Of a stretch of 57,016 nt of DNA, positions 8,344 to 29,922 are shown one piece after another; the first letter of the stretch is position 1, and every line of letters begins with the position of its first letter. The notes under the pieces were generated by a model, which saw only the letters and a program-made list of their open reading frames with translations, searched no databases and was not told the origin of the DNA. The DNA is taken from the NCBI GenBank assembly GCA_016840035.1, contig JAEOTC010000029.1, positions 1 to 57,016 on the forward strand, in the 5' to 3' direction. Position numbers and translations under genes: made by a program. This stretch comes from Candidatus Hodarchaeota archaeon (GTDB lineage Archaea; Asgardarchaeota; Heimdallarchaeia; Hodarchaeales; Hodarchaeaceae).

Positions 8344-8366
8344 ACATTACACATCCTTTCATCGAT

Positions 8367-9317: not shown

Positions 9318-9321
9318 ATTC

Positions 9322-10293: not shown

Positions 10294-10304
10294 AATTCTA
10301 CCTC

Positions 10305-11703: not shown

Positions 11704-11731
11704 AAAAAAAGATGACACATTAAAAAAAAAT
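11704..11731 (-). terminator. Oligo-T archaeal terminator after the substrate-binding protein gene
   Basis: Two long T runs on the minus strand within 50 nt of the oppA stop. Confidence 0.5.
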
Positions 11732-11752
11732 AGGGGAGGAAGAAATGAAAAC

Positions 11753-13820: not shown

Positions 13821-14342
13821 ATGAAGGAGAAAGATCCGAAAAAACCACTAGCAAAAGATAAAGGGTCAAAAAATAAAAAAAATACCCCACAAGGGCTCGA
13901 TGATCTAGATATCTCAATAATAAAAGAATTACAAAAGGACTGTCGAACACCTGTTCAGCTTATTGCCCAAAATGTTGAGGCTCCTGCTTCAACCGTGCAT
14001 TATAGATTGAAGCGTCTAGATGAACAGAATTTTATTAAAGGATATTATGCGGCGATTAATGCTGAGAAAGTAGAAAAGGACTATCTTACGATCATGCAAG
14101 TTAGAGCGTCGTATGGAAAGAATTATCATAATGAGATCGGCAGCCAGTTATCAGATCTACCAGGTGTATGGGCTGTATATTTTCTGTTAGGAGAATGGGA
14201 TTTTCTAGTTCTTACACGATCCAAAGACCGAAATGAATATATGAAACTACTTGAAGTAGTGATGTCCATGCCCGGTATTGAGCGAACTTCATCACTTGTT
14301 GTTGTTAAATTAATAAAAGAAGATCCTCGTATTGAACTATAA
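13821..14342 (+). CDS. Lrp/AsnC family transcriptional regulator
   Basis: LDDLDISIIKELQKDCR HTH, STVHYRLKRL, C-terminal RAM domain (GEWDFLV). Confidence 0.93.
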   Translation: MKEKDPKKPLAKDKGSKNKKNTPQGLDDLDISIIKELQKDCRTPVQLIAQNVEAPASTVHYRLKRLDEQNFIKGYYAAINAEKVEKDYLTIMQVRASYGKNYHNEIGSQLSDLPGVWAVYFLLGEWDFLVLTRSKDRNEYMKLLEVVMSMPGIERTSSLVVVKLIKEDPRIEL

Positions 14343-14405: not shown

Positions 14406-15161
14406 TCACTGAGATGTAAATCCTCCATCTACTACAAAAACTCCACCGGTAACAAAAGAAGAATCATCAGAAGCTAAGAAGAGTGCAGTTTTCGCAATCT
14501 CTTCTGGCAATCCAAATCTTCCGAGAGGATATGCACCAGTTCTGGTTTTTCTTACAATCTTGGGATCCCCTTGTTTTTCAATAACTCTTTGTAACATTGG
14601 AGTTTCTATTGCACCAGGACAGATGCAATTAACACGTATCTTATCAGGTGCAAGTTCAACAGCCAGTGATTTTGTTAATGCCACGATTCCACCTTTGGAA
14701 GCAGAATAGACAGGTGAAAAAGATCCAACCAAAGCTGCTGCTGAAGAATTATTGATTATTGCCCCTCCTCCCCTTTTTCTCATTTCGGGAATAGCATATT
14801 TAGTACAGAGGAAGACAGATTTGAGATTAACATTGATTGTTCGATCCCATTCTTCCTCACAAGTATCTTCTAATTTTTTTACCACTTCAACTCCTGCATT
14901 ATTGAACAAGATGTCTATTGTGTTGAATCCCCTTGATCTCTTAATCAGATATTTAACATCTTCGGTATTGGAGATATCGGTTTTTATAAACAGTGCGGAA
15001 CTTCCTGATTTCCGGATCCTTTCAATAACTTTCTCTCCTTTTTCAGAATCAATATCAGCTCCAATTATATTCGCCCCTTCCTGAGCAAAAAGCACTGCCG
15101 TCGCATGGCCAATCCCATGACTAATTCCTGTTATTAATGCAGTTCTTCCAGTTAATTTCAT
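14406..15161 (-). CDS. Short-chain dehydrogenase/reductase (classical SDR)
   Basis: TGISHGIG, NNAG, YSASK, NCICPG, VDGG. Confidence 0.93.
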   Translation of the reverse strand: MKLTGRTALITGISHGIGHATAVLFAQEGANIIGADIDSEKGEKVIERIRKSGSSALFIKTDISNTEDVKYLIKRSRGFNTIDILFNNAGVEVVKKLEDTCEEEWDRTINVNLKSVFLCTKYAIPEMRKRGGGAIINNSSAAALVGSFSPVYSASKGGIVALTKSLAVELAPDKIRVNCICPGAIETPMLQRVIEKQGDPKIVRKTRTGAYPLGRFGLPEEIAKTALFLASDDSSFVTGGVFVVDGGFTSQ

Positions 15162-15167
15162 CTATAC

Positions 15168-15992
15168 TTATTCTTCCTGTTCTGTCCAAAATTTTGCAAT
15201 TTCAATTGGTGTAGCAAACCAAACGTTTTCTTTGGATTTCATAAACTTGATCAGATTCCCAAGCATTTTAGCTCTTGAAGGAACCCCAATAATTTGAGGG
15301 TGCATTGCTAACATGAAATAAAGGCCCTCTTCATATACAGCTTCAAATTCATCAGCCCAAATCTCATAAACTTTTCTATGACTATTAATTCCGCTTTGAT
15401 ATTCTAAAGCAGGGAAATAATTAAATCCAAAAAAAGGCCAATCGTCCAACATCCACCGAATAGGAAGTTCTATTATATCACCAGTATTTGTTTGAATTTT
15501 AAAAGGGATATCATCACCCATCATACTTGTATCATAAACTAAATCAAATTTACTAAGAAGGTCAAGGGTATTTTCGCTCAAATCAGCGGCAGGAGCTCGG
15601 TAACCCTGTGGTTTAAGACCTGTTATTCTTCTCAAAGCTTCAATTCCTTTTTCCATTTCGAGGTTTTCCTCTGAACGAGAACAGTTTGCGGGATTTTTAT
15701 GAGAATAACCATGATGACCAATTTCATGACCCGCTTTGTGGATACTAGAGATTGTATTGGGATATAAATCTGCTACTTCACCTGGAATGAAAAAACCAGC
15801 CCTAATCTTATGTTTTTTGAGTAATTTTAGGATTCTGGGGACTCCAACTTTCGGCCCATATGTTCCCTGTGAGAGAACTACTGGATTATCCCGCGTAATA
15901 TTATTTCGTCGCAAGATATTCCTCCAAGAAATCTCTGCATCAAGATCAAAGGTCAAGCAAACTACACATTGAGCTCCATCTTTCCATTTCAA
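15168..15992 (-). CDS. CE4 polysaccharide deacetylase-family amidohydrolase (PuuE/HpPgdA-like)
   Basis: LTFDLDAE, YGPKVGVPRIL, HEIGHHGYSH, GYRAP, MHPQIIG. Confidence 0.88.
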   Translation of the reverse strand: MKWKDGAQCVVCLTFDLDAEISWRNILRRNNITRDNPVVLSQGTYGPKVGVPRILKLLKKHKIRAGFFIPGEVADLYPNTISSIHKAGHEIGHHGYSHKNPANCSRSEENLEMEKGIEALRRITGLKPQGYRAPAADLSENTLDLLSKFDLVYDTSMMGDDIPFKIQTNTGDIIELPIRWMLDDWPFFGFNYFPALEYQSGINSHRKVYEIWADEFEAVYEEGLYFMLAMHPQIIGVPSRAKMLGNLIKFMKSKENVWFATPIEIAKFWTEQEE

Positions 15993-15995
15993 TTT

Positions 15996-17291
15996 TTATT
16001 CACCTTTAACACCGCACCAATCTAATGTAGTGGCAGCAATAACCTTCGCAACATTTATAGTTGAATCTATGGTTACTCGTTCATCGAATGAATGAATTCT
16101 CTCTGCCCAAGGGCCATAGACAACAGCTGGTGTTCCATGATGTACAAAATACCTTGTATCTAGTCCAGCAGAGCCTCCTGAAAATGATGGTTCTGCATTC
16201 GTTATATTTAATGAATGGTGGGCAATCATCTTAACCAGTGGATCATTTCTATCTTGTTCGTGGGGGCGCGCTCGCCAACCAAACCATTCGATAAGGGGTT
16301 TATGTTCCTTCAACCAAGGATCAGTAGTAGTCGCTTCAAAAACAGCAGTCTCAATTTGAGAAATAACGGTTTCTCGGGATTCACCAGGTGGCCATCCTAC
16401 CCTGCATTCAATTGTACATGTTCCTGGAACCGTGGATGGCCAATCTCCAGCATTAATAACCCCTATATTAATTGTTGTAGCTCTACTTTTCATAATTGAA
16501 TGCTGTTCCACGAGTGGATAACGGATAGTCCTTTGTCGTGTTTCATTAAGATCCTTTAATGCATTTAAAATGGGAAGGGTCTTTAGAATAGCATTTTCTC
16601 CAAAATGAGCAGTCGCTGCATGAGCAGTAAGTCCTGGAACAGTAACTCTGAAATACATAACTCCTGCACTAGCGAGGCCTATTACGTAATTACTGGGTTC
16701 AGGGATAATAGCAGCATCTGGTTTAGGTTTAATCATTCGTAGATATAAATTACCTCCAACTCCACCATCTTCTTCTTCAATTGTAGTTTCTACAAATAAA
16801 TCTCCATTTAAAATTATATTAGTTTCTCTTAATGCCTCAACGACAATAAGAAGAGCTGCTACACCAGCTTTCATATCCCCTGCACCCCTTCCATAGATGT
16901 AATTTCCTTCTACCTCTCCACCCCATGGATCTTTCGTCCAAGTTTCCAATGGTTCCGCACTTACAACATCAACATGACCACTCAGACACATAGATGGTCC
17001 TTTTCCCTCTCCTTTAACGGAAGCAAAGACATTAGGCCTTTGTTCATACCCATACTTTGTAAATGAAGTTGTTTCGAAGAAATCTTCATGGTTTCTTAAT
17101 TTTTTAATATCAGGATAAACTAGCTCACTCTCCATTCCTAGTGACTTGAGTTTTTTATGTAAAAATTGCTGTATATCTTTCTCTTCACCAGTAATACTAG
17201 GGATTTTTACTAAATCTTGAGTACATCGGATTAATGAATCACTGTTATCTTCTATCCATTTTAGTACATTATCTCTTTCTGAACTCATCAA
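15996..17291 (-). CDS. M20 ArgE/DapE-family deacylase
   Basis: SGHVDVV, GRGAGDMKAG, IEEE, IPEP, IHSFDE. Confidence 0.9.
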   Translation of the reverse strand: MMSSERDNVLKWIEDNSDSLIRCTQDLVKIPSITGEEKDIQQFLHKKLKSLGMESELVYPDIKKLRNHEDFFETTSFTKYGYEQRPNVFASVKGEGKGPSMCLSGHVDVVSAEPLETWTKDPWGGEVEGNYIYGRGAGDMKAGVAALLIVVEALRETNIILNGDLFVETTIEEEDGGVGGNLYLRMIKPKPDAAIIPEPSNYVIGLASAGVMYFRVTVPGLTAHAATAHFGENAILKTLPILNALKDLNETRQRTIRYPLVEQHSIMKSRATTINIGVINAGDWPSTVPGTCTIECRVGWPPGESRETVISQIETAVFEATTTDPWLKEHKPLIEWFGWRARPHEQDRNDPLVKMIAHHSLNITNAEPSFSGGSAGLDTRYFVHHGTPAVVYGPWAERIHSFDERVTIDSTINVAKVIAATTLDWCGVKGE

Positions 17292-17354
17292 ATATTTCCT
17301 CTATCAAATATTCCTTTACTCGATATAAAACTGAAATAATTCTTCCTTCTTTAA

Positions 17355-18419
17355 TTAGAAATCGTATTTTTCAAATTTTTTTCCATTATATGTCTTATGG
17401 GTTAATTCAATGTACCTATCTCCAGGGTATGCCGTCCACGACCATATAGTCCCATAGGGAACTTCCTGATCACTGAGAAAATATGAATTATCTTGACATA
17501 CCCCAATTTTAGATTCCAATTTATCTGATAACACTTCTTGAACATGAGATTTTGAGATTTCAGTATTTGATTGTGAATTAAACCAATTCTTGATCAAATT
17601 TAATCTAGGGACGCTAGTGATAGACCTTAATTCTTTGTTTTCATAAATCATGGTTTCTTGAGATCGAAAGTGATTTGTTACCACCGCAAATCCAGCTTCT
17701 GTTTTATCCACAACCATGACTCGCTTTGGAGTGGCTTCAACGTATGTGATTGCATCTGTCGAATCAGCAAGTAGATAATTATTCCCTCGGAAATGTGGTA
17801 CTCTTCGTAAAAAAGAGGTAGCTTCACTCACATTCCGACAGGTATCAAGAATCCATCTGACCACATAATGTAAAGCAACCCCTGCTGCATCTTCTGTATA
17901 GCCACGAATCGCAGTTACCGCAATAGCTAGACCTGATTCATTCAAACCTCCATATCGACCTACAAATAGATCGGTACCTGAAATACTTGCTAAGGCTTCT
18001 TCAGGATAACTTTTCCATAAAACAGAAAATTCAGCTACCCATTTATCCCAGTCATAATTCCTACAGAAAATCGTCCTCGCATTTTTTGTGAATCTCTTTG
18101 AAATGGCAAATATACTGCAACCCAATTGTGGATATTTTGTCAACGCAAGGGAAAATGCTCTCAAATGAGTATCATCATAATTGCCACCCTCGATTATTCC
18201 ATTCAACTCATCAATTAAATTTGGAGTATACTGCTTAACAGCCTTTTCACACTGATCAGCTAGTTTTAATCGGTCTTCAGTAAGAACAGGTGGAGAATAT
18301 CCAGATTGACGCAAATCTTTCCCCAGCGCAACTCCATTTTCATAATAATCTCCTTCAAATTTCCTTATTAACATATTCAGAGTTCCTGTTCTGCTTAAAT
18401 TCTGTCGATTTTCAGTCAA
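17355..18419 (-). CDS. C45-family Ntn hydrolase/acyltransferase (autoproteolytic)
   Basis: G|CS autocleavage site, RNYDW, GLNESGLA, TNHF. Confidence 0.85.
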   Translation of the reverse strand: MTENRQNLSRTGTLNMLIRKFEGDYYENGVALGKDLRQSGYSPPVLTEDRLKLADQCEKAVKQYTPNLIDELNGIIEGGNYDDTHLRAFSLALTKYPQLGCSIFAISKRFTKNARTIFCRNYDWDKWVAEFSVLWKSYPEEALASISGTDLFVGRYGGLNESGLAIAVTAIRGYTEDAAGVALHYVVRWILDTCRNVSEATSFLRRVPHFRGNNYLLADSTDAITYVEATPKRVMVVDKTEAGFAVVTNHFRSQETMIYENKELRSITSVPRLNLIKNWFNSQSNTEISKSHVQEVLSDKLESKIGVCQDNSYFLSDQEVPYGTIWSWTAYPGDRYIELTHKTYNGKKFEKYDF

Positions 18420-19299
18420 ACTCCCTGATATTCTTTTGTAGGGTCAGTTTGCCTAATTTTTTAAAAATCTCCCCGTCTGGTAAATTATTATATGGAGGAA
18501 ATTTACCTTCTATTGGTGAGTCTCTGAAGCTTTTCCAGAGGGGATTCAATCCATAGAATCCATGTTGACGTACCCAGCTTACTTTCTCAAAATCAATTAT
18601 TTCTGTCAGAATTTTCTCTTTTGAATCAGCTTTTTGAAGGACACGGCCTTCTGGGTCTACAAAAATTGATTCTCCTCCTCCTTGAGGACAAACAGCGTTG
18701 ATATTCAGAAAGTAACATTGAAACATAATAGCATGAGCTTGTGGAAGAATAACCTCTGCTGGACGGTCGGAAGTGCATGTAAGTGATGGTTGAAGTATAA
18801 CTTCAGCTCCCATCCAAGTAAGAGTCCTGAAAATTTCAGGAAACCATAAATCGTAGCAGATTACTATCCCAATGCGGCCAATATCGGGGATATCAAAAGT
18901 AACAAATTCCTCTCCCCAATCAATTTTCTCATGAGGCATCCAAGGGAATATTTTTCGATATTTCGCAACAATTTTCCCATCTGGATTGAACACAATAGAG
19001 GTATTAAAAATCTTAGATCCATCTTTTTCCATAAAAGATCCAGGTAATATCCAACATTCAAGACTTTTGGCTAATTCGGAAATTTTATCGGTAGTATCAT
19101 TAGGAATAGGTAGTGCAGACGTTTTATATCCATCTAGACCGTAATGTTGGAGAAATAGTTCCCCAGTAAATATCAAATCAACCCAAGGATAACTTTTTTT
19201 TTGTATACGGGCAATCTTCATGAATTTCTTGAGATTATTATCTTCATTGACATAATCTTTTTCCAGCTGAAGTCCAGCAATACCTAATTTCCTTGACAA
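18412..19299 (-). CDS. Carbon-nitrogen hydrolase (nitrilase/amidase superfamily)
   Basis: Catalytic E (TGELF), K (YRKIFP) and C (ICYDLWFPE). Confidence 0.9.
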   Translation of the reverse strand: MSRKLGIAGLQLEKDYVNEDNNLKKFMKIARIQKKSYPWVDLIFTGELFLQHYGLDGYKTSALPIPNDTTDKISELAKSLECWILPGSFMEKDGSKIFNTSIVFNPDGKIVAKYRKIFPWMPHEKIDWGEEFVTFDIPDIGRIGIVICYDLWFPEIFRTLTWMGAEVILQPSLTCTSDRPAEVILPQAHAIMFQCYFLNINAVCPQGGGESIFVDPEGRVLQKADSKEKILTEIIDFEKVSWVRQHGFYGLNPLWKSFRDSPIEGKFPPYNNLPDGEIFKKLGKLTLQKNIREFD

Positions 19300-19312
19300 A
19301 CTCTATCACCGG

Positions 19313-20608
19313 CTAGAGTTGTTTTAATATTTCTTCCATTTTTACTAGAACTGTACTGGCTTGTTGTTCTGTGATACATAGAGGTGGTTGTAATCGAAGA
19401 ACGTTGGTATGAATTCCACCCAAACCAATAATAATTCCATTCTTTAGTAATAATGAAACAGCTTCTTTAGCTTTTTTAACAGCCGGTTCTTTGGTAGATC
19501 TGTTTTTAACCAATTCTATACCAATCATCAAGCCTAATCCACGTACATCTCCGATGATGTCAAATTTCTGCTGATACTCTTTGAGTTGGGTTAAGAAGAA
19601 TTTGCCAACTTTTGCAGAATTTTCGATCAATCCTTCATCCTGAAGTAGATTGATGTTTTCTAATGCAACCGCACTACTAACGGGGTTACCACCGTACGTT
19701 GAAAAGAAATCTCCCGCTTCTACACAGTTTGCAATATCCGAATTAGCTATTACAGCACCTATAGGCATACCACCTCCTAATCCTTTTGCCATAGTGACCA
19801 GATCGGGTTTTAGATCCCAATGTTCGAAAGAAAACATTTTACCTGTTCGTCCAAACCCACTCTGTACCTCATCTGCAATGAATGGGATCTGATAATCAGC
19901 TAAGATCTTCTGTAACTTCTTATAGTAACCTGCAGGAGGTACGATAATGCCTCCTTCTCCTAAGACGGGTTCCATAATAAAAGCAGCAACATCTCCAGCA
20001 GTGTGTCGATTTATAGTATCCTCCACTCTTTCAGCAGTCTCTTCCGCACATTCTTCCTCAGAGAGCCGTGACCTATAACAATATGGAACCGGGGCGTGAA
20101 CAACCCCAGGTGTATTTGCATAGGATCCAAATCCCTTTTTATATTTAGCTTGCCCAGTTAAACTAAATGCAACACCTAATCTGCCATGAAAAGAACACTC
20201 AAGCGCAATTAATGCAGCTCCAGTCTTTCCCCTCGAAAACGCGTATTTTTTAACTAATTTAACAGCGTTATCAACGGCTTCAGTTCCACTGTTACATAGA
20301 TAGGTGTGCTGAAGATTCGCTGGTGTGATTTTAGCCAATTTTTCTACCAATAGCGTTTGGGGAACATTAAAGAAAACCCCAGAAGTGTGAACAAGCTTAG
20401 ACATTTGTTTAGTTGCAGCAGCTACTAATCTCTCTGGAGCATGTCCTGCATTAGTGACGGCTATGCCAGCAAAACAATCAATATACTCCTTACCCTCCAT
20501 ATCCTTAAGAACTGCACCTTTTCCTTCTGTTAATACGACTTCTTTCCGAGTATACCCCTGTAAATAGTATTGTTTATCTTTTTTAATAATCTCATCGGAT
20601 TTTACCAT
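19313..20608 (-). CDS. Class-III PLP aminotransferase (omega/beta-amino acid or acetylornithine type)
   Basis: NSGTEA, SFHGR, FIADEVQSGFGRTG, MAKGLGGG, STYGGNP; start placed at ATG 20608 behind GGAGA. Confidence 0.9.
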   Translation of the reverse strand: MVKSDEIIKKDKQYYLQGYTRKEVVLTEGKGAVLKDMEGKEYIDCFAGIAVTNAGHAPERLVAAATKQMSKLVHTSGVFFNVPQTLLVEKLAKITPANLQHTYLCNSGTEAVDNAVKLVKKYAFSRGKTGAALIALECSFHGRLGVAFSLTGQAKYKKGFGSYANTPGVVHAPVPYCYRSRLSEEECAEETAERVEDTINRHTAGDVAAFIMEPVLGEGGIIVPPAGYYKKLQKILADYQIPFIADEVQSGFGRTGKMFSFEHWDLKPDLVTMAKGLGGGMPIGAVIANSDIANCVEAGDFFSTYGGNPVSSAVALENINLLQDEGLIENSAKVGKFFLTQLKEYQQKFDIIGDVRGLGLMIGIELVKNRSTKEPAVKKAKEAVSLLLKNGIIIGLGGIHTNVLRLQPPLCITEQQASTVLVKMEEILKQL

Positions 20609-20758
20609 ACTTATATCTCCTAAGATATATTGATAATGGTTTTTCAAAGTTGATCAGAAATACCTAGATATTCTCTAAAAAAACTTTTATATTTTGCGTT
20701 TTTTCATAACAATACATTATCCACTTCATTTTTTCTTCAAAACTAAGGAGTAATACTC

Positions 20759-22243
20759 TTGACTAGACAAGTATTGGACATCATGAATGGGGAGGTTGTT
20801 ATTCCTCAGAATTATATAAATGGAAAATGGGTTACATCTGAGACTGAGATTTTTAAGGATGTTTTTAACCCTTCAAAAGATGAAATCATTGCAAAAACTC
20901 CAATGAGTACATCCAACGAAACTATCCAGTGTATTAAGGCAGCTAAAAAAGCTTTTGAGCGCTGGCGTCGAACTCCTGCTCAAACACGGATTAGGTATTT
21001 GTATAGGATTCGCGATTCATTTGAGGAGAATTTTGAAGAACTCTCCAAAATATTGACTATAGAACAAGGGAAGGTAATTGACGAATCACGGGGGGAGTAT
21101 AGACGTGCTATTGAAAATATTGAAATTGCTGCAAGTGTTCCCATTTTACAACAAGGATACAATATGGAAGACATTGCTTCGGGTATAGATGAAATGGTGA
21201 TTAAACAACCACTAGGAGTATTCTTTTGTGTTGCTCCTTTCAATTTTCCAGGAATGGTTCCATCTTGGTTCTGGCCATATGCCATTGCAACTGGAAATAC
21301 GTATATAGTTAAACCCTCTGAGCAAGTTCCCTTAAGTATGACAAGACAATTTGAATTAATTGAAGAAGCAGGACTTCCTAGAGGAGTACTCAATATGATG
21401 CATGGGGGTGCGGAGGTTGTGAATACCTTAATAGAAAGTCCTGATACGATTGGTATGTCTTTTGTAGGATCCACTAGTGTAGGCGAACTTCTTTATAAGA
21501 AGTGTGGAGAGTTCAAAAAACGTGCTCAGGTTCAAGGAGGAGCAAAGAACTTTATTACTGTTATGCCCGATGTAGATATCAAACGAACCATTCCAAATCT
21601 CATGACATCTTTTTATGGATGTACAGGACAACGATGTTTGAGTGGAGCTGTGTTACTAGCTGTAGGGGACGTTTATGAACCCCTCAAGATAGCTGTAGTT
21701 GATGCTGCGAAGAAACTAACAGTTGGATATGGACTCGATGAAACAAACCAAATGGGTCCTTTAGCATCAAGAAATGGGTATGATAAAGTTTTAGGATATA
21801 TTCAATCAGGAACCGATGAAGGTGGGGATTTGATTTTAGATGGAAGAGATTTAAAGATACCCGATTATCCTAATGGTTATTTTATTGGGCCGACCATCTT
21901 TGATAAAGTTAATCCAGATATGACAATTGCTCGTGAAGAGATTTTTGGTCCTGTAATGTCTATTATCCCTGTCCAAGATCTTGATGAGGCTATCGACATC
22001 ATTCATAATAATCCTTACGGGAATGCATCCTCCTTGTTTACTTCTAGTGGTAAAACAGCAAGAGAGTACCAATATCGTGTTAATGCGGGAAATATAGGTA
22101 TTAACGTTGGGATAGCTGCACCTATCGCTTCGTTTCCGTTTTCTGGAATGAAAGATTCTTTTTTGGGGGATCTTCATGGCCAAGGACGTGACTCAATAAA
22201 TTTCTTCACAGAGAATAAAGTGGTTATAACTCGGTGGTTTTGA
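20759..22243 (+). CDS. mmsA: CoA-acylating (methyl)malonate-semialdehyde dehydrogenase
   Basis: PFNFPGMVP, KPSEQVP, SFVGST, GGAKN, GQRCLS, EEIFGP, GINVGIAAP, FLGDLHGQG - typical of ALDH6/MmsA/IolA. Confidence 0.88.
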   Translation: MTRQVLDIMNGEVVIPQNYINGKWVTSETEIFKDVFNPSKDEIIAKTPMSTSNETIQCIKAAKKAFERWRRTPAQTRIRYLYRIRDSFEENFEELSKILTIEQGKVIDESRGEYRRAIENIEIAASVPILQQGYNMEDIASGIDEMVIKQPLGVFFCVAPFNFPGMVPSWFWPYAIATGNTYIVKPSEQVPLSMTRQFELIEEAGLPRGVLNMMHGGAEVVNTLIESPDTIGMSFVGSTSVGELLYKKCGEFKKRAQVQGGAKNFITVMPDVDIKRTIPNLMTSFYGCTGQRCLSGAVLLAVGDVYEPLKIAVVDAAKKLTVGYGLDETNQMGPLASRNGYDKVLGYIQSGTDEGGDLILDGRDLKIPDYPNGYFIGPTIFDKVNPDMTIAREEIFGPVMSIIPVQDLDEAIDIIHNNPYGNASSLFTSSGKTAREYQYRVNAGNIGINVGIAAPIASFPFSGMKDSFLGDLHGQGRDSINFFTENKVVITRWF

Positions 22244-22264
22244 TTTTCCTGAGGTGATTTTGAC

Positions 22265-22696
22265 GTGGTACTCGCTACACTTGGAGCTGTATTAAATTTT
22301 GCTCTACAACTGGAAGAAAGAACCTCAAGTTGGTATGCTACGTTGCTAGAACACAGTAATGATGAAAATGTTCAAGAAATAAGTGAAAGATTAAGAAAGT
22401 TAAGTAATGGACGGATTATAGTTCTTAAGCGATTACGGAGTGAAAATGTGACTGAAATGATTCTAGAACCTATCTATGGATTAGATAGTGCAAACTATAC
22501 TATTCCTGAAAATCAGATTGATGATATTTCTAACCCCCTTTTTAAGGTAACAGCCGAAGGGATTGAGCTCTGTTTGAAGTCATTTTATAAAGCAGCAGCC
22601 AAAAAGATTGACTTCCTTAGTGAGGTTGCCTATGCATTTGAAGATCTTGCTGACGAGGTATCGGAAAATATCGAATCTATCCAATTGTTGCAATGA
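22265..22696 (+). CDS. Ferritin/rubrerythrin-like four-helix protein (degenerate)
   Basis: ALQLEE...WY and GIE...FY...LADE helical pattern; GTG start behind GAGGTGA. Confidence 0.6.
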   Translation: MVLATLGAVLNFALQLEERTSSWYATLLEHSNDENVQEISERLRKLSNGRIIVLKRLRSENVTEMILEPIYGLDSANYTIPENQIDDISNPLFKVTAEGIELCLKSFYKAAAKKIDFLSEVAYAFEDLADEVSENIESIQLLQ

Positions 22697-22717
22697 ACTT
22701 TGAAGGATGTTAATCAA

Positions 22718-23653
22718 ATGAAACTTGGATGTTATATGCCTACATTTGGTGGATGGATTGGTAATGTTGGTGTAGAAGAACCTGAAATTTCTTATAGTAA
22801 TGTGAAATCTTCAGCTATTCTTGCAGAAAGTGTAGGTCTTGATTCCATATGGGTTGCTGATCATCTTCTTAATCCATTAAAAGGAGAACATGAGAAGTGT
22901 CTTGAAGCGTGGACTATTCTAACTGCATTAGGAGTACTTACACAGCGTGTAAAAATCGCTCATACAACCTTGTGTCAGGGATTTAGATATCCAGCTGTTT
23001 TAGCTAAAATGGCCACTACATTGATGGAAATATCTAAGGATCGTTTTATCCTTTCCATTGGCGCAGGTTGGTATAAACGAGAGTTTGAGTCATATGGTAT
23101 TCCTTGGTATGAACATGATGAACGAGTCGCTCAAACTGAAGAACAGCTTCAGATAATCAAGTCCCTTTGGACAAAAGAAAAGACAGATTTCGAGGGAGAT
23201 TATTATTCCATTAAGGAAGGGCGTCTCTATCCAAAACCAGGTGAGATCCCTCAAATTTGGTATGGAGGTGAGTCAGAAGCATCAAAACGGCTAGTAATTA
23301 GAAATGCTGATGTATGGCTAATGTATGATTCTTCACCAGCCAATGTTCGTAAAAAGATAAAAGAAATTCTCCCTCAACTCAAGAAAAAGAAACTAAAATA
23401 TGCTGTTTCTACACATATCGTTCCTGGTGACACGGATAAGACTGCTTTTCAAAGATTAGAATGGCTTACCCAAGGTAATGTTGAAGCCAAGGATCGAATC
23501 TCGAGATTAGGGATTGTTGGTTCTCCTCAAACTATCAAAGAAAAACTGCTGGAATATGCAGATACAGGCCTCGATCACTTATTGCTTAAATTCAGTAATA
23601 CTACTGAAGATCTTTCATTTTTAAGAGATATGCTATCCAAATGGGAGTCGTAA
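22718..23653 (+). CDS. Luciferase-like (LLM) flavin/F420-dependent oxidoreductase
   Basis: WVADH, EAWTIL, RYPAVLAKMATT, IGAGWYKREF, WYGG, VGSP. Confidence 0.88.
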   Translation: MKLGCYMPTFGGWIGNVGVEEPEISYSNVKSSAILAESVGLDSIWVADHLLNPLKGEHEKCLEAWTILTALGVLTQRVKIAHTTLCQGFRYPAVLAKMATTLMEISKDRFILSIGAGWYKREFESYGIPWYEHDERVAQTEEQLQIIKSLWTKEKTDFEGDYYSIKEGRLYPKPGEIPQIWYGGESEASKRLVIRNADVWLMYDSSPANVRKKIKEILPQLKKKKLKYAVSTHIVPGDTDKTAFQRLEWLTQGNVEAKDRISRLGIVGSPQTIKEKLLEYADTGLDHLLLKFSNTTEDLSFLRDMLSKWES

Positions 23654-23657
23654 ATAT

Positions 23658-25262
23658 ATGTATCCAGATTTGATTTTATATAATGGAAAAATAATTAGTT
23701 TGGATAAGGAAAATTCCATCGTGGAGGCTGTTGCCATAAAATTCGGCTATATCGTCAAAGTAGGAACAAATGATGATATTTTAAATACAGAGGGATCATT
23801 AACACAAAAAATAGATCTCAAGGGGAAAACCCTTATTCCAGGACTCATTGATTCTCATTCTCATATGATTGCTTCTGGAATAGCTAGATTAATTTATGTT
23901 GATTTGAGTGAAGAAGCGGGAGTAAGGAGTATAAAGGATCTCCAGGAAAAATTAGGGGAAAGAGTGAATGAGACTCCAGAGGGAGAGTGGATTTTTGGAT
24001 ATCAAGAAGACGATGCTAAGCTGATAGAAAAACGACACCCTACTAGACAAGAACTAGATACAATTTCAACCAAACATCCAATTCTCATCACTACAGTAGG
24101 AGGACATTTTTGGATCGCAAATACGAAAGCATTCGACTCGGGAAACGTAACCAAAGATACACCTGATCCTGTAGGAGGAAAATTCGATCGTGATTCTCAA
24201 ACAGGAGAATTAACAGGTGGTTTTCACGAAAAAGCACTCAATTTAATTCGTAATTCAGAGGATCCTCCCTACTCTCGAGAATTAGCTCAAAAAGGTGCTT
24301 TTCAGATCTTACAGGAATGTGCTGCTTTAGGATTGACAACTATCTATGATACAGTTGAAGCTTCTCACATTAGAGCAGTTTTAGATCTTAAGAATCAAGG
24401 TACTCTCCCAATTAGAGTAAGAATGGATGCTAATATTGAATTAATTACTAATTTAGATGAAGTGGGGATATATCGAGGATTTGGAGATGATTGGCTTAGG
24501 CTTTGTGGTCTTAAATATTTTTTCGATGGTGCTATCTCAGCTAGAACCGCTGCAGTATCAGAACCGTATCTCAATAAGCCTAATTTTTTTGGTGTAATGG
24601 CTACGACAAGGGAAATTGCCCAGAAGATTCTAGAAGCAGCGTATCAGAAAGGATATCGAATCTCAGCCCATGCAAATGGTGATCGTGCAATCGATCTTTT
24701 TCTCGATATAATGGAAGAACTTCAAGGAAAATATCCGAGGGATGATCCTCGGAATCGAGATATTCATTGTACAGTTGTGAACCCAAGAATTATATCCAGA
24801 ATCAAAAAACTGGGTATACTTCCAACAATATTTGGCCCCTATCCATACTATCATGGAGATAAACTCATTCCTGCATTCGGCGAAAAACGATTGGAATGGA
24901 TGTTTGCTGCTAGGTCTTTTCTTGACTCAAACATTATTCTTAGTGCTCATTCTGACCATCCATGTGCCCCGAATTCTCCACTAATGGCAATTCATTCTTT
25001 AGTAAATCGTAAAACTAAGATGGGAAAAAATATTGGCAGTACACAAAAAATCTCCGTTCAAGAAGCATTGCGCTTATACACGATTAATGCTGCTTATCAC
25101 TCCTTCGATGAGGAGAAGTTAGGGACGATTGAAGAAGGTAAGTTGGCAGATTTTGTGCTTTTGGGGGAAGATATATTACATATAGATGAATCAAAAATTA
25201 AGGATATTCCAATAGAAATGACATTCGTCGGTGGTAAGATCGTCTATCAGAAATTAAATTAA
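23658..25262 (+). CDS. YtcJ-like metal-dependent amidohydrolase (Amidohydro_3)
   Basis: PGLIDSHSH, KYFFDG, HANGD, HSDHP, GTIEEGKLADFV. Confidence 0.9.
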   Translation: MYPDLILYNGKIISLDKENSIVEAVAIKFGYIVKVGTNDDILNTEGSLTQKIDLKGKTLIPGLIDSHSHMIASGIARLIYVDLSEEAGVRSIKDLQEKLGERVNETPEGEWIFGYQEDDAKLIEKRHPTRQELDTISTKHPILITTVGGHFWIANTKAFDSGNVTKDTPDPVGGKFDRDSQTGELTGGFHEKALNLIRNSEDPPYSRELAQKGAFQILQECAALGLTTIYDTVEASHIRAVLDLKNQGTLPIRVRMDANIELITNLDEVGIYRGFGDDWLRLCGLKYFFDGAISARTAAVSEPYLNKPNFFGVMATTREIAQKILEAAYQKGYRISAHANGDRAIDLFLDIMEELQGKYPRDDPRNRDIHCTVVNPRIISRIKKLGILPTIFGPYPYYHGDKLIPAFGEKRLEWMFAARSFLDSNIILSAHSDHPCAPNSPLMAIHSLVNRKTKMGKNIGSTQKISVQEALRLYTINAAYHSFDEEKLGTIEEGKLADFVLLGEDILHIDESKIKDIPIEMTFVGGKIVYQKLN

Positions 25263-25275
25263 CAGATGGTTGATT

Positions 25276-26241
25276 ATGAACATGACTAGTCAGATTAAAT
25301 CAAACGACAACACAAAAATAAATCCAAAAACCTCTTATCGAGAACCAATTTTAAAGTTTGACTTTCCTGGTGTAAGAATAGGGATAGGTGAATATGAGGA
25401 GGGGCCGACTGGATGTACAGTATTTCATTTTAAGAAAAGAGTTAAAATGGTTTCAGATATACGTGGTGGCGCACCTGGAGTGGTGGGAGCACATCTAAAT
25501 CAAGTTGATACCGTTACTTTTGCAGGTGGAAGTCTTCTTGGATATGAAGCGATTACAGGTGTGAATGCAGAAGTATTACAAGCTAATGATTATAAACTGG
25601 ATTGGGAATCAGTTCCTCTCGGAGCTGGAGCAATTATCTGGGACTTTCCAGGGCGTACTAATACTGTGTACCCTGATAAAGCCCTGGGTAGAGCCGCATT
25701 ACGTAGTGCGAAAGAAAACGTATTTCCGTTGGGAAATCAGGGAGCTGGTAAATCTGCTACAGTGGGAAAATTTTTGGATTTTTCTTATCATGAGCCTGGA
25801 GGACAAGGTGGAGCTTTTGCTCAATTTGGTGAAGTGAAAATTTTAGTATTTACTGTTGTCAATGCTCTAGGTTCTCTATACAATAGAAAAGGAGAAATTG
25901 TGCGAGGTCATTTTAATCAGAAGGAAGGCACTAGAATCGATGTTTCTGAAGCGATTAAGACATGGGCTAGATATAAGGACCAAACACAAAAAGGAAATAC
26001 AACTCTTACCTTAGCAATTACTAATCAAAAATTCCCGTCTCGATATGAATTTCAACAAGTATCTCGACAAATTCATGTCTCAATGGCGAGAGCAATTCAG
26101 CCTTTCCATCATCTAGATGATGGTGATGTATTTCTCCTGGCTAGCACCGAAGAGGTATTCGACAAACAGCTTACCTCGGGTGCTTTTGGTGTTTTAGCTG
26201 GAGAGCTTGCTTGGGATGCAATTTTGACATGTTTTGAATGA
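25276..26241 (+). CDS. nylC: NylC-like endo-amidase (6-aminohexanoate-oligomer hydrolase family; S58/P1, Thr nucleophile)
   Basis: Blocks recalled from NylC: LKFDFPGV, YEEGPTG, DIRGGA, VYPDKALGRAAL, GN|TT autocleavage site, IQPFH..DGD, ELAWDAIL. Confidence 0.8.
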   Translation: MNMTSQIKSNDNTKINPKTSYREPILKFDFPGVRIGIGEYEEGPTGCTVFHFKKRVKMVSDIRGGAPGVVGAHLNQVDTVTFAGGSLLGYEAITGVNAEVLQANDYKLDWESVPLGAGAIIWDFPGRTNTVYPDKALGRAALRSAKENVFPLGNQGAGKSATVGKFLDFSYHEPGGQGGAFAQFGEVKILVFTVVNALGSLYNRKGEIVRGHFNQKEGTRIDVSEAIKTWARYKDQTQKGNTTLTLAITNQKFPSRYEFQQVSRQIHVSMARAIQPFHHLDDGDVFLLASTEEVFDKQLTSGAFGVLAGELAWDAILTCFE

Positions 26242-26334
26242 ATAAAGTATAATTGGTCAATGAAAAGAAAATAAGTAAAGAATGAATTTGTATAACTGTT
26301 TGAATGTATGTTATGTGTTAAAGGAGTATTTAAG

Positions 26335-27483
26335 ATGAAATTTGATAAGATTATGATCATTGGACTTGTGGTTTTACTGCTTTCACCTGTTGCTATATTA
26401 CTTTCAATCAATGAGCATTTTGTACTCGAAAACCAGTACTCAATAACTGACTATCGATCTAGAGGAATTGTTGTTGAAAATGGAGTTGCTTACATTGCAG
26501 GTGATAATGTACTAGAAGCCGTCAGTATAGATGATCCTAATTTTATGTTCCAATTCGGTAAAATAGAAACGCAAGGAGATATTGTTGGTCTCTTCAAATC
26601 GGGAAATTTGGTGTACTTACCCTATGAAACTGGTGGATTTACAATTATTGATGTTACCAATGTTCTAAATCTTATTTCTGTTGGAAATTACTCTAGCAGT
26701 TCAACAATCTGGGATATCTTCGTTTCTGGAACTAAAGCTTATTTACCTGTTGCAGATGCGGGTTTAGACATTGTGGATGTGACAAACCCAAGTAATATTT
26801 CATTGGTGGGTAGCTATCATGATGGGTCGAACGGTACAGATAGAATATTCGTCGAAGGATCCATTGCATATTTAGGGGAAGCTTCTAATGGACTCAAAAT
26901 CATAGATATTTCTAATTCCTCGAATCCTCAACTCCTAGGACAGTATGATAAAAATATTCGTGATATCTTTGTAAAAGACAATATTGCGTATCTAGCTTTA
27001 ACTGATGGTCTTGAATTCTCAGGTGTAGAAATTGTTGACATGGAGGATCCTACAGATCCAAAACTACTGTCAAGAATAGAAATACCAACGTATGACATAT
27101 TTGTAAAGAATGAATTTGTTTACATACCAGTAAAGTATGAACAGCTTGTGGTTTACGATATTAGTAAGTTAGAGTCGCCTCGTAGAGTTGGACAATATCC
27201 TTTTCCCTCAAAATATCCAGTATCGCGTGGAAACATAGTTTTTAGCCTTGAGAATCGTATTTACTTATGTACTCAAAATCTAAATATCATCAATCAAGAA
27301 CTGACAAAACTTGATCTTAGTGATAACGGGATAAGGACAACCATTTTGGTGGCTTTTCTCGGTGTAATTGTTATACTAATTAGTCTTTATCGTGATCGTT
27401 CAGAGAAGAATAGCATTGATTATTATCTAAAACTCTATAAGGCGAAAAAAGCAAAATTAAAACATCAGGATAATATTCAGTAA
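26335..27483 (+). CDS. Membrane-anchored LVIVD-repeat beta-propeller protein
   Basis: Repeated AYL/AYI...GLxIVDV(T/S)NP units; N-terminal and C-terminal TM segments; start at ATG 26335 behind AAGGAG. Confidence 0.85.
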   Translation: MKFDKIMIIGLVVLLLSPVAILLSINEHFVLENQYSITDYRSRGIVVENGVAYIAGDNVLEAVSIDDPNFMFQFGKIETQGDIVGLFKSGNLVYLPYETGGFTIIDVTNVLNLISVGNYSSSSTIWDIFVSGTKAYLPVADAGLDIVDVTNPSNISLVGSYHDGSNGTDRIFVEGSIAYLGEASNGLKIIDISNSSNPQLLGQYDKNIRDIFVKDNIAYLALTDGLEFSGVEIVDMEDPTDPKLLSRIEIPTYDIFVKNEFVYIPVKYEQLVVYDISKLESPRRVGQYPFPSKYPVSRGNIVFSLENRIYLCTQNLNIINQELTKLDLSDNGIRTTILVAFLGVIVILISLYRDRSEKNSIDYYLKLYKAKKAKLKHQDNIQ

Positions 27484-27502: not shown

Positions 27503-28609
27503 TCACAATCGACATTTAGCGAAAATTTCTTGAACCTCTGACTGGGGTAAAGCATGAACAGTGTTTCCGTTTATTCCTGTCATCGTTTTTGCATTTATAA
27601 GGGCATTAATTATAGCTTCTTCCGTTGCTTCAGCAACCGCTTTGAAAAAGGGGGTTAAATACATATCAGACAATGATTCAACCGTTTTAACTCTGGATTT
27701 ACTGGGATCTACAATAAGATTCGCAGTGGAGAATCCTAAAAATAAATCACCCGATGTATGGCCTCCATATCCCCCTATTCGAGCTAAACCGGCAGTTATC
27801 CGTTTGACTAAACGTTTCAATTGATAAGGGAGTAGTGGGGCATCGGTAGCTGCAATAACTATTATGGAACCGTTTTCTTGTTTTTCTGTATCAAGACGAG
27901 GTTGTTTTATCTGAATTTCAGGTTTATAATCACTGATTTCCTTCCCAACTGGAACTCCGTTTATGGTGAAGTGTTCCCTTTTCCCATAATTTGTCTGAAC
28001 GCAGAGACCAATAGTGTACTCTGAGACTCTACGTGAGCTGGTACCAAAACCACCCTTGAAGCCGTGACATATATTTCCAGTAGCACCACCTACACTTCCC
28101 TCCATGACTTTTCCTCCCTTTGCTTTATCACAGGCTAAAAAAACATGTTCCTTCTTAATATGGAATCCATTAATATCATTTAATAATCCGTCATAAGTCT
28201 CTGCAACCACGGGTAGACTCCAAAAAATGGGATCAGTGTAAAAATTATTATCAATTCTCCACTGGATTATTGCATCTCTCACGACGCCTACACTATGTGT
28301 ATTTGTAAGACATATTGGTCCTTTAAGTTGACCTGATTCATTTACCCAATGACTACCAGTCATCTCGCCATTTCCATTATAAGAGAAAAGAGCAGCATAT
28401 ACTTTATCAGGATTTTTTCCTGTGGGAAAAATAGCAGTAACTCCAGTTCGTATTGGACCTTTACCGACTTTTAGTTCTCCTTCTCCCTCAATCAAGGTGC
28501 AATGTCCAACTTCAACTCCCTTGACATCAGAAATCGAATTATATTTACCAGTTGTTCCTTCAAAAGGAATCCCAAGATCACGTGCCTTCATAGCGGTCAA
28601 ATGTGACAT
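27503..28609 (-). CDS. dmpA: DmpA/BapA-family aminopeptidase (S58/P1; L-aminopeptidase/D-amidase or beta-peptidyl aminopeptidase)
   Basis: ARDLGI, RTGVTAI, NGNGEMTG, PVVAETYDG, G|SIIVIAATDAPL autocleavage site, SGDLFLGFST. Confidence 0.88.
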   Translation of the reverse strand: MSHLTAMKARDLGIPFEGTTGKYNSISDVKGVEVGHCTLIEGEGELKVGKGPIRTGVTAIFPTGKNPDKVYAALFSYNGNGEMTGSHWVNESGQLKGPICLTNTHSVGVVRDAIIQWRIDNNFYTDPIFWSLPVVAETYDGLLNDINGFHIKKEHVFLACDKAKGGKVMEGSVGGATGNICHGFKGGFGTSSRRVSEYTIGLCVQTNYGKREHFTINGVPVGKEISDYKPEIQIKQPRLDTEKQENGSIIVIAATDAPLLPYQLKRLVKRITAGLARIGGYGGHTSGDLFLGFSTANLIVDPSKSRVKTVESLSDMYLTPFFKAVAEATEEAIINALINAKTMTGINGNTVHALPQSEVQEIFAKCRL

Positions 28610-28689: not shown

Positions 28690-29922
28690 ATGTCCAAAAT
28701 TCTGAAATTGACGATCATGACGAGTTTAGATTCACGTAAACAAAAGGAAAAAGCCTTTAAAAAAGGAAAGATCTCTCTAGCTGTCGATAAATCAGTGTAT
28801 AAACGTTTTTCCGAGCGAGATATGATTTTTGCACGGGTAATGTGGGATGAAAGCTATTCAGGATATCGACGAGCGATTAATGAGAAAGAAGAGACTAAAA
28901 TGGGCATGAAAGGTTATAGTCAAGAGGGTTACGCTGCAATGAATGCTGCGTGGATGGTTCATGATACTTTTCGTCAGGCCTTTTCATGGGAAAACCCAAA
29001 ACAGGCTCCAACATCACTTACTCAATCTACAATCAAACCTAAAAGATTTAAGTCCTCTGACTTAGAAAAAAACTCAAAAATCGTAAAAAGAATAGCTAAC
29101 GTTTATGGAGCATGTGATGTTGGCATAACAGAACTAGATCCAGATCATCCATATCTTTACACTCATGATCGAATGAACAATGAAATAAATTTCCCAGAGG
29201 GAGTAAAATACGCTATCGTAATGCTTATTCAGATGGATTATCAGGCTTTGAAAACCTCACCAGCTTTGCCATCTAGTATCACAACAGGGAATGGATACTC
29301 CCGAATGGCTTTTGCAATCGCAGGTATGGCTGATTTTTTGCGAAATCTTGGATATCAGGCAATACCTGCTGGAAATGATACCGGAATTTCTGTTCCATTA
29401 GCTATTCAGGCAGGTTTAGGTCAAGTGGGAAGAAATGGTTTATTGATTAATCCGAAATATGGACAATCGGTACGGATTTGCAAAGTTTATACTGACTTTC
29501 CAATGAAAATTGACCAACCAATCGATTTTGGTGTACACCAGTTCTGTAGAGTGTGTAAGAAGTGTGCTAAGTATTGTCCAAGTCAAAGCATTCTCTATGA
29601 TGATGATCCAACTTGGGAAAGTCCTTGGAACAGTGTTTCGAATAATAATGGATCCTATAAGCATTATGTTAATGTAGAGACATGCTACGAATTTTGGGTA
29701 AAAAATTCAACAGATTGTTCAAACTGTATGCGGGTTTGTCCATTTACAAAACCTCCTGGAATTGCACATGATATTGCACGATTCTTTATCAAATATTTTC
29801 CATTTTTGGATCCTCTGTGGCTTCGATTGGATAATTTGATGGCGTATCTACCTTGGTGGCGATATGGAAAGAAAGATGATGCGTTGAAATTCTGGAAGGG
29901 AAAAAAGTATCTGGGAAAATAA
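28690..29922 (+). CDS. Reductive dehalogenase-family protein (cobalamin, 2x Fe-S), without Tat signal
   Basis: GACDVGI, RNLGYQAIP, AIQAGLGQVGRNGLLINPKYG, CRVCKKCAKYCP (CX2CX2CX3CP), CYEFW...CSNCMRVCPF. Confidence 0.8.
   Translation: MSKILKLTIMTSLDSRKQKEKAFKKGKISLAVDKSVYKRFSERDMIFARVMWDESYSGYRRAINEKEETKMGMKGYSQEGYAAMNAAWMVHDTFRQAFSWENPKQAPTSLTQSTIKPKRFKSSDLEKNSKIVKRIANVYGACDVGITELDPDHPYLYTHDRMNNEINFPEGVKYAIVMLIQMDYQALKTSPALPSSITTGNGYSRMAFAIAGMADFLRNLGYQAIPAGNDTGISVPLAIQAGLGQVGRNGLLINPKYGQSVRICKVYTDFPMKIDQPIDFGVHQFCRVCKKCAKYCPSQSILYDDDPTWESPWNSVSNNNGSYKHYVNVETCYEFWVKNSTDCSNCMRVCPFTKPPGIAHDIARFFIKYFPFLDPLWLRLDNLMAYLPWWRYGKKDDALKFWKGKKYLGK

Follow-up and report, generated by a model that had tools for sequence, protein, structure and literature searches.

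What does a relative of the nylon hydrolase NylC do in an archaeon? The question is raised by an open reading frame (ORF) at positions 25276-26241 (plus strand) of a 57,016-nucleotide stretch of DNA, hereafter the window, which is one whole contig (JAEOTC010000029.1) of a Candidatus Hodarchaeota genome (assembly GCA_016840035.1; 4.3 Mb, 87% complete). An earlier note, made from the sequence without database searches, had described the product as a close homologue of NylC, had suggested that its native gene context may reveal the ancestral substrate, and had proposed it as a candidate polyamide-degrading biocatalyst. In this study, homology, fold, conservation of the catalytic residues and conserved gene linkage were established for this NylC-like protein. 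With moderate confidence we read it as a cytoplasmic, self-processing N-terminal nucleophile (Ntn) amidase that would hydrolyze imported beta- or omega-aminoacyl amides, and thus as a natural counterpart of the nylon-oligomer pathway.

The NylC-like protein and its catalytic residues

The ORF begins with an ATG 13 bp past the stop codon of an upstream Amidohydro_3 gene and encodes 321 residues; an alternative TTG start lies in the same frame at position 25270. The translation confirmed the ORF and all motif blocks quoted in the earlier note, namely FDFPGV (residues 28-33), YEEGPTG (residues 40-46), VYPDKALGRAAL (residues 131-142), GNTT (residues 240-243), and QPFHHLDDGD (residues 275-284). Pfam assigns residues 29-297 to Peptidase_S58 (PF03576; 48.2 bits, cutoff 23.9), and public records label the closest homologues either "P1 family peptidase" or "6-aminohexanoate-oligomer endohydrolase". 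In a phmmer search against the sequences of the Protein Data Bank (PDB), the top matches were all NylC entries (E 7.5e-62 to 1.3e-59), with 3axg at E 7.5e-62 and 212 bits over residues 10-318 of the query. Nyl12 (E 2.6e-54, 188 bits), Nyl50 (E 2.2e-27, 99 bits), and ThnT (E 6e-9, 39 bits) were also matched, and DmpA and BapA were absent at E<=0.01.

A Leucobacter protein (L095:4200-5267), found by a degenerate motif scan of genome contigs, served as stand-in for NylC; its match to 3axg reaches 762 bits and covers all 355 residues. The archaeal protein is 41% identical to this orthologue over 317 residues (BLASTP, E 2e-71). An AlphaFold2 model of the NylC-like protein (pLDDT 85.9, pTM 0.89) was compared with solved structures by Foldseek, which gave template modeling (TM) scores of 0.90-0.92 for NylC structures at 37-38% identity, 0.79 for Nyl50, 0.72 for ThnT, and about 0.6 for BapA/DmpA. 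Because the protein is nearer in both sequence and fold to the NylC types than to DmpA/BapA or ThnT, it was placed in the NylC subfamily.

The tetrad G240-N241-T242-T243 aligns with G265-N266-T267-T268 of NylC. The predicted self-cleavage site, N241/T242 (codons at 25996-26001, plus strand), is aligned with N266/T267 and would divide the protein into an alpha chain of residues 1-241 (~27 kDa) and a beta chain of residues 242-321 (~9 kDa) with T242 as its predicted N-terminal nucleophile. K165 (25768-25770) and N196 (25861-25863), which delimit the stretch 25768-25863, are the counterparts of NylC Lys189 and Asn219, and D282-G283-D284 (26119-26127) is that of Asp306-Gly-Asp308, whose two aspartates presumably act in the autoprocessing of NylC. 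In NylC, Thr267 is the nucleophile and Lys189 and Asn219 are presumed catalytic residues (PMC6021441). Conservation was assessed in two alignments, one of 25 sequences from the Asgard clade described below and a mixed one of 18 sequences. N241, T242, K165, N196, and D282/D284 are all invariant in the former; in the latter, T242, N196, and D282-G283-D284 are invariant and N241 and K165 nearly so. Judged by its sequence, the protein is a true NylC-subfamily P1/S58 enzyme that has kept the N|T site and the catalytic residues, and autocleavage would be expected of it. The family match proposed earlier is thus upheld by the E-value against NylC, by the conserved residues and by the TM scores.

The N terminus is hydrophilic and no signal-peptide-like stretch is visible in the translation, from which a cytoplasmic amidase is the best reading. 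The gene has a GC content of 0.40, compared with 0.365 for the window. Contamination or a chimeric contig was considered and rejected, since GC content is even along the window and the same gene cluster recurs in other Heimdall genomes. The names of the best homologues and the kinship of the genome place the host in Heimdallarchaeia/Hodarchaeales, in keeping with the archaeal host assumed at the outset.

A populous family with a separate Asgard clade

The description as a close homologue of NylC did not hold. Apart from the 41% identity, NylC ranked only 239th among the 309 sampled matches of the NylC-like protein, and the latter ranked 215th among the 301 sampled matches of NylC, with about 200 sampled bacterial homologues nearer to NylC than the archaeal protein is. 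Sampled identities to NylC were at most 51% for soil actinobacterial homologues and 37-45% for the Asgard clade, the exception being a 264-residue fragment (P0229) that is 86% identical to NylC. A word-index search, in which 8000 candidates were scored and 4002 had E<=0.001, gave a best match of 67% identity from Hodarchaeales. The closest metagenomic relatives (P0003-P0009), one of them on a 150-kb Hodarchaeales contig, are 60-67% identical, and next come many bacterial proteins of 50-53% identity from Chloroflexota, Actinomycetota, Cyanobacteria, and Poribacteria. An exhaustive HMMER search of 1.84 billion representatives at 50% identity yielded 2027 matches at E<=1e-3 and 172 at E<=1e-30. 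The family is common, and the archaeal protein is a further member of a known and populous family.

Among Asgard archaea, on the other hand, the gene is a rare accessory gene. It is present in 3 of 61 relatives, the source genome included, and was found in no other species of its own genus (21 compared); phylum-wide, 7 of 400 genomes, from three families, carry it.

Trees were built with FastTree (214 sequences) and in a quick IQ-TREE run (LG+C20 posterior mean site frequency model, 86 sequences); the sample consisted of the best query matches and the NylC group, without an outgroup. Both trees contain an Asgard clade with support 99 (30 sequences in FastTree, 25 in IQ-TREE), which unites all seven copies from Asgard genomes with metagenomic proteins, some of them named Hodarchaeales or Heimdallarchaeota. 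The depth of this clade shows in the identities among its members, 41-68% across three families. Apart from it, and on a long stem, stands the NylC group (12 or 5 sequences) with full support; the NylC-like protein falls outside this clade of NylC orthologues (EC 3.5.1.117) in both trees. The two trees put the NylC group away from the well-supported Asgard clade, but a constrained topology with the two as sister clades had a slightly better likelihood, and sisterhood is not rejected by the approximately unbiased test (p 0.61). By sequence, the archaeal protein belongs to the same subfamily as NylC and to a different clade, and no claim is made on the deep branching order.

A conserved gene cluster around the NylC-like gene

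The NylC-like gene lies within a plus-strand gene run (20759-27483; gaps of 3-66 bp; annotated with Pfam and NCBIfam), whose first gene (20759-22243) encodes an aldehyde dehydrogenase. It matches TIGR01722 with 499.8 bits (cutoff 448.5), and its ten best PDB matches are all (methyl)malonate-semialdehyde dehydrogenases (MMSDH); by sequence it is assigned as such a coenzyme A (CoA)-acylating enzyme of the C3 type. Divergent from it, with 111 bp between the two starts, is a minus-strand run (14406-20647) headed by a class-III omega-aminotransferase gene (19313-20647; Pfam), whose best PDB matches are omega-aminotransferases of the 4-aminobutyrate (GABA)/ornithine type.

Linkage was tested by tblastn of the window's neighboring genes against every homologous locus. 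The NylC-like gene lies beside a class-III omega-aminotransferase gene in six of the seven Asgard genomes that have it; apart from the window, these are G046, G073, G080, G056, and G089, in which the directly adjacent aminotransferase is 58-72% identical to that of the window. In G073 and G046 a ferritin-like gene and the MMSDH gene stand opposite the aminotransferase gene, which is followed by the NylC-like gene. G080 has MMSDH, ferritin-like, aminotransferase, NylC-like, and Amidohydro_3 genes and, further on, a DmpA-like gene, with Opp genes nearby. The order in G056 is aminotransferase, NylC-like, Amidohydro_3 and, again further on, DmpA-like. G089, from another family, has aminotransferase, NylC-like (41% identical), DmpA-like, M20, CN-hydrolase, and Opp binding protein genes on one strand. 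The MMSDH, ferritin-like, Amidohydro_3, DmpA-like, M20, CN-hydrolase, and Opp genes thus vary in order and orientation. Three Asgard families are represented among these loci, and identity to the NylC-like protein of the window is as low as 41-59%, so the linkage is more than recently shared synteny.

An MMSDH match at E<=1e-120 was found in all seven Asgard genomes with the NylC-like gene and in 7 of 58 relatives lacking it; these genomes are kin, and the counts are given with no formal test. The MMSDH of five positive genomes shows 68-73% identity, and that of G089, a fragment at a contig end, 51%. The divergent aminotransferase/MMSDH pairing occurs in all positive genomes except G089, where the contig ends. 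In Heimdall genomes that have the aminotransferase/MMSDH pair but lack the NylC-like gene, another amidase gene was found at the aminotransferase. In G051 and G060 a DmpA-like gene directly follows it, in G024 a PF00144 gene (L133:11147-12376, 54% identical to that of the window) stands between the aminotransferase and Amidohydro_3 genes, and G053 has a DmpA-like gene at a distance of 4 kb. The DmpA-like genes of these clusters are 62-74% identical. The slot beside the aminotransferase is therefore variable, being taken by another amidase where the NylC-like gene is absent.

Bacterial loci gave a different picture. The loci compared were 78 from bacterial genomes and 80 from metagenomes, about 115 of them at least 6 kb long; none of the window's neighbors was found in them save two distant aminotransferases. 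The metagenome loci are mostly soil bacterial contigs with about 50% identical homologues. Recurrent bacterial neighbors are housekeeping genes (NAD kinase, RecN, TlyA/FtsJ, NusB, polyprenyl synthase, GYD, and pseudouridine genes); this neighbor clustering used a filter on GC content at third codon positions, and, the genomes being close relatives, the counts should not be read as independent. The result agrees with a published survey in which the gene neighborhoods of NylC homologues were uninformative and the native function was left undetermined (PMC11601465). In the Asgard genomes the expectation that native gene context would be informative was borne out by the conserved cluster.

C-N hydrolase genes crowd the part of the window between 4.6 and 31 kb, which also holds an S8 protease gene. 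Next to the aminotransferase on the minus strand are a CN-hydrolase (18412-19299; Pfam), a C45 Ntn acyltransferase/hydrolase (17355-18419; Pfam/NCBIfam), an M20 deacylase of the ArgE/DapE type (15996-17291; Pfam/NCBIfam), a carbohydrate esterase family 4 (CE4) deacetylase (15168-15992; Pfam), and a short-chain dehydrogenase/reductase (SDR; 14406-15161; Pfam). The closest solved structure of the CN-hydrolase is the omega-amidase Nit2 (E 1.3e-27), and a pair of aminotransferase and CN-hydrolase genes also occurs in G089 (L092:1038-1922); an aminotransferase with an omega-amidase is the classical "transaminate, then deamidate" arrangement. A five-gene ABC transporter of the Opp/Dpp type follows at 7288-13603 (minus strand; Pfam), comprising an SBP_bac_5 binding protein (11753-13603), two permeases (10305-11501 and 9322-10293), and two ATPases (8367-9317 and 7288-8343). 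Between the transporter and the amidase operon lies a plus-strand gene for a regulator of the Lrp/AsnC type (13821-14342; Pfam); a copy 64% identical to it adjoins MMSDH in G016, and it is a candidate regulator. The Opp ATPase gene is followed, 20 bp downstream, by the gene for a serine hydrolase of the beta-lactamase fold (PF00144; 5921-7267, minus strand). NylB, the 6-aminohexanoate-dimer hydrolase, is among the solved relatives of this protein (E 1e-13 to 1e-19); comparison with a verified NylB' gave 23% identity and aligned the SxxK and Tyr motifs of the two.

A second P1/S58 enzyme, of the beta-aminopeptidase type DmpA/BapA, is encoded on the minus strand at 27503-28609. It scores 365 bits against Pfam S58, and its PDB matches include DmpA (1b65, E 2.8e-93) and BapA (3n2w, E 5.5e-93). 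With the NylC-like protein, whose gene is 1.26 kb away, it is barely alignable (BLASTP E 0.023). The two were rightly kept apart in the earlier note, as this value and the S58 scores of 365 and 48 bits indicate. Three DmpA-like paralogues of 43-44% identity in genus g8 (G049:C180:18097-19137, G036:C151:1311-2354, and G032:C97:147-1190) each carry one in-frame stop (TGA, TGA, and TAA, respectively) and are perhaps decaying or affected by sequencing errors.

Within the plus-strand run, the MMSDH gene is followed by genes for a small protein of 143 residues (22265-22696), a luciferase-like oxidoreductase (22700-23653; Pfam), the Amidohydro_3 protein (23658-25262; Pfam), whose PDB relatives are uncharacterized, the NylC-like protein, and an LVIVD repeat protein (26308-27483; Pfam). 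The 143-residue protein has no Pfam or NCBIfam match; weak leads, a Ferritin_2 match (E 0.017-0.026) and a ferritin-like nearest cluster in a protein atlas (score 0.95), suggest a ferritin-like protein. Similar proteins of 124-145 residues follow MMSDH in seven other Heimdall loci examined (L088:1218-1616, L089:6449-6835, L090:12233-12628, L132:8689-8997, L133:15357-15776, L135:11933-12325, and L136:10582-10998), the gene in G080 (L090) lying between MMSDH and aminotransferase. The Amidohydro_3 orthologue of the same genome (L090:8267-9864) is split into two overlapping frames (8267-8743 and 8686-9864), which indicates a frameshift (pseudogene) or an assembly error. Beyond the DmpA-like gene, a plus-strand gene (28690-29922) encodes a protein of the reductive-dehalogenase family (TIGR02486, 223 bits, cutoff 160) with two 4Fe-4S motifs, and it is adjoined by a D-2-hydroxyacid dehydrogenase gene.

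These neighbors also bear on a biosynthetic or acyl-transfer role of the kind played by Ntn enzymes such as ArgJ or ThnT. The fold superfamily includes acyltransferases, and BapA and DmpA form peptide bonds in vitro (PMC9235088), but the neighbors in the window are importers, hydrolases, and catabolic dehydrogenases, and no synthetase, nonribosomal peptide synthetase, or polyketide synthase gene was found in the examined region of 4.6-31 kb. Such a role is thus considered very unlikely.

Proposed substrates and relation to nylon hydrolysis

In the pathway that we propose, the Opp-type ABC transporter would import small amide oligomers or peptides. The NylC-like precursor would cut itself between N241 and T242, and the freed T242 would act as nucleophile in amide hydrolysis, with K165 and N196 assisting. 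The enzyme would be one of several interchangeable amidases for bonds other than those of alpha-peptides, together with the DmpA/BapA-like, NylB-like (PF00144), Amidohydro_3, M20, and CN-hydrolase proteins. The beta- or omega-amino acid released, most likely beta-alanine or 3-aminoisobutyrate, would be turned into a semialdehyde by the adjacent class-III aminotransferase, and the semialdehyde into acetyl- or propionyl-CoA by MMSDH. The last two steps follow known biochemistry, in which transamination of beta-alanine gives malonate semialdehyde and that of 3-aminoisobutyrate gives methylmalonate semialdehyde, from which MMSDH makes acetyl- and propionyl-CoA, respectively. Both the substrate class and the flux through the aminotransferase and MMSDH are inferred from the conserved linkage.

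Substrates other than alpha-peptides are suggested because the recurring amidase types have characterized members that act on non-alpha amide bonds. NylC and NylB act on 6-aminohexanoyl amides, and the substrate of ThnT is pantetheine according to the title of PDB entry 3tm1. BapA, BapF, and DmpA act on N-terminal beta-alanyl and other beta-aminoacyl groups (PMC13344977, PMC9235088). The cluster ties NylC-like, BapA-like, and NylB-like hydrolases to one aminotransferase/MMSDH pair and a peptide importer, and so offers a concrete proposal for what two enzyme groups do in nature. The short list of substrates that it yields consists of beta-alanyl or 3-aminoisobutyryl amides or oligomers and pantothenate-type amides. 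More tentatively, the pathway encoded by the cluster might be one for naturally occurring amides that are beta-peptide-like or oligo-(beta/omega-aminoacyl), a "nylon-3 type" substrate of biological origin. If so, the cluster would reveal the native substrate class of NylC-type hydrolases and beta-aminopeptidases, and the pathway for man-made nylon oligomers would have re-created a pre-existing natural design.

A different account of the same genes is the scavenging of peptides in general or of D-amino-acid peptides, for instance from cell-wall debris, in which the class-III enzyme would be a racemase or a general transaminase and the link to MMSDH incidental (valine or beta-alanine housekeeping). 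Peptide scavenging would suit the Opp-type transporter and the peptidases (S8 subtilases, M20, and M14) that the clusters contain or have close by. DmpA has L-aminopeptidase/D-Ala amidase activity as well, and relatives of it are named D-aminopeptidases. Class-III-fold racemases score nearly as well as aminotransferases against the class-III enzyme (best PDB scores of 252 and 270 bits, respectively), which also matches NF045634. We nevertheless regard scavenging as rather unlikely, for the aminotransferase/MMSDH genes form a conserved divergent pair, with the amidase slot attached, in at least 10 Heimdall genomes, and the recurring amidase types have characterized members that prefer beta, omega, or D substrates. 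Moreover, we know of no characterized NylC-subfamily enzyme that is an alpha-peptidase.

Several observations weigh against hydrolysis of beta- or omega-aminoacyl amides as the native function. By sequence, the class-III enzyme is inseparable from GABA/ornithine aminotransferases or archaeal class-III-fold racemases. MMSDH could serve valine or inositol catabolism. In G072 the NylC-like gene and the aminotransferase/MMSDH pair are on separate contigs, and the neighbors of the NylC-like gene encode an M14 carboxypeptidase, a patatin, and two Amidohydro_1 proteins, a setting among ordinary peptidases that would also suit scavenging; the G072 genome retains the pair with a PF00144 gene 3 kb away. 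The other Heimdall clusters examined lack conserved counterparts of the LVIVD, luciferase-like oxidoreductase, and reductive-dehalogenase-like genes. The linkage is seen in this archaeal lineage only, and, given the unrelated bacterial neighbors, the cluster may represent a lineage-specific use and not the ancestral function. The function suggested for the NylC-like clade is drawn from homology and gene context. Finally, Tyr146 of NylC, which we take to be important for its activity, is replaced by Trp122 at a position that is variable in the 18-sequence alignment, so that substrate contacts would presumably differ. Tyr146 is documented as an interface residue only (PMC6021441).

A special case of the beta/omega-amide pathway is the breakdown of coenzyme A fragments, where a ThnT-like action on pantetheine- or pantothenate-type amides would release beta-alanine for the aminotransferase and MMSDH. 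In structural similarity, ThnT comes directly behind the nylon hydrolases (TM 0.72), beta-alanine as a pathway end fits MMSDH, and a 2-hydroxyacid dehydrogenase and an SDR are encoded nearby. However, NylC is matched with 212 bits and ThnT with 39 bits, no recognizable pantoate-catabolic genes were identified, and the Opp-type transporter suggests oligomeric substrates, so that we consider this special case improbable. ThnT (PDB 3tm1, 3s3u) is like the archaeal protein in its fold and as a self-cleaving enzyme with a threonine nucleophile that cleaves an amide of a beta-alanine-containing compound; it differs in its length (419 residues), its identity of only 24-26%, and its biosynthetic context, the thienamycin pathway. 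BapA, BapF, and DmpA (PDB 3n2w, 1b65) share the peptidase family and the principle of self-processing. They form a distant subfamily with a serine nucleophile (S250 of BapA, according to the title of 3n5i) and are exo-acting on N-terminal beta-residues.

The closest parallel is NylC itself (6-aminohexanoate-oligomer endohydrolase, EC 3.5.1.117; from Arthrobacter/Paenarthrobacter KI72 pOAD2, Agromyces, and Kocuria; PDB 3axg, 5y0m, 7yu1). The fold and the G-N|T-T site are common to both proteins, the predicted alpha and beta chains are of similar size (~27 and ~9 kDa), and nylC, too, has genes for an Opp-type ABC transporter and a PF00144 hydrolase linked to it. NylC has an 11-residue insert near its C terminus that is absent from the archaeal protein, and about 25 extra N-terminal residues (archaeal residue 10 corresponds to NylC residue 35), so that the extension of approximately 30 residues reported as missing was roughly right. 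Since most family members have about 315-330 residues, the extension is peculiar to the NylC group. A doughnut-like tetramer of alpha-beta heterodimers is a further trait of the NylC subfamily. In the nylon-oligomer route, NylA/B/C are followed by NylD1, a 6-aminohexanoate aminotransferase, and NylE1, an adipate-semialdehyde dehydrogenase (PMC6752018). The logic proposed for the archaeal genes is the same, an endo-amidase with other amidases, an omega-aminotransferase, and a semialdehyde dehydrogenase, so that Opp, NylC, and NylB leading to NylD and NylE would be mirrored with a natural, probably C3, substrate. Unlike that route, the archaeal genes, of which the NylC-like one is chromosomal, are clustered and conserved, and the coupling to an MMSDH-type dehydrogenase in place of an adipate-semialdehyde dehydrogenase points to C3 amino acids.

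The same parallel raises the question of whether the archaeal protein is truly adapted to synthetic nylon or 6-aminohexanoate oligomers, like the NylC encoded on pOAD2. The homology to NylC speaks for it, as does the presence in one window of NylC-like, NylB-like, omega-aminotransferase, aldehyde dehydrogenase, and Opp genes that mirror the nyl pathway. Yet the CoA-acylating dehydrogenase is not of the adipate-semialdehyde type, the Asgard clade is deep, the GC content of the gene is near that of the window, and the NylB-like protein is distant from NylB'. In addition, nylon activity is widespread without selection for it (PMC11601465). We give this explanation hardly any credence; nylon-oligomer activity, if present, would be a promiscuous side activity of an enzyme for natural amides.

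For the enzymatic recycling of nylon, the principal leads are enzymes of the NylC type; none of the papers searched was found to link them to archaea. About 40% of 95 diverse NylC homologues hydrolyze nylon, with no link to phylogeny (PMC11601465). Nyl12 and Nyl50 (PDB 9z0a, 9cxr), which belong to the same subfamily as the archaeal protein, are metagenomic NylC homologues active on polyamides 6 and 66, so that homologues of about 320 residues without the NylC extension can hydrolyze nylons; they were selected and assayed at 65-75 °C, and according to the authors their genes lack an informative neighborhood (PMC11601465, PMC13015463). By analogy, nylon activity of the archaeal protein is plausible. 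Phe134 of NylC corresponds to Trp110 (codon 25603-25605), a tryptophan nearly invariant in the Asgard clade, and F134W is reported as an activity-improving mutation of NylC (PMC13015463). The proposal of a candidate polyamide biocatalyst is reasonable but ordinary, given the share of active homologues and a common family in which the protein is one among thousands. Nothing indicates thermostability (GC content of the window 0.365; panel assays at 65-75 °C).

In Leucobacter and other Microbacteriaceae, nylC was found after oppBCDF and before nylB'. The arrangement oppBCDF-nylC-nylB' extends over L095:1303-7059 and recurs in L094, L096, L100-L102, L105-L107, and L109. The Leucobacter NylB' scores 812 bits over 392 residues against 1wyc, and these genes occur in several species on chromosome and plasmid contigs, the plasmid contig having two motif matches. 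Such genes were also found in metagenome-assembled genomes of Microbacterium, Pseudolysinimonas, and Microcella, and a 2.3-kb contig (L104) that was binned with Gemmatimonadota is probably a binning error.

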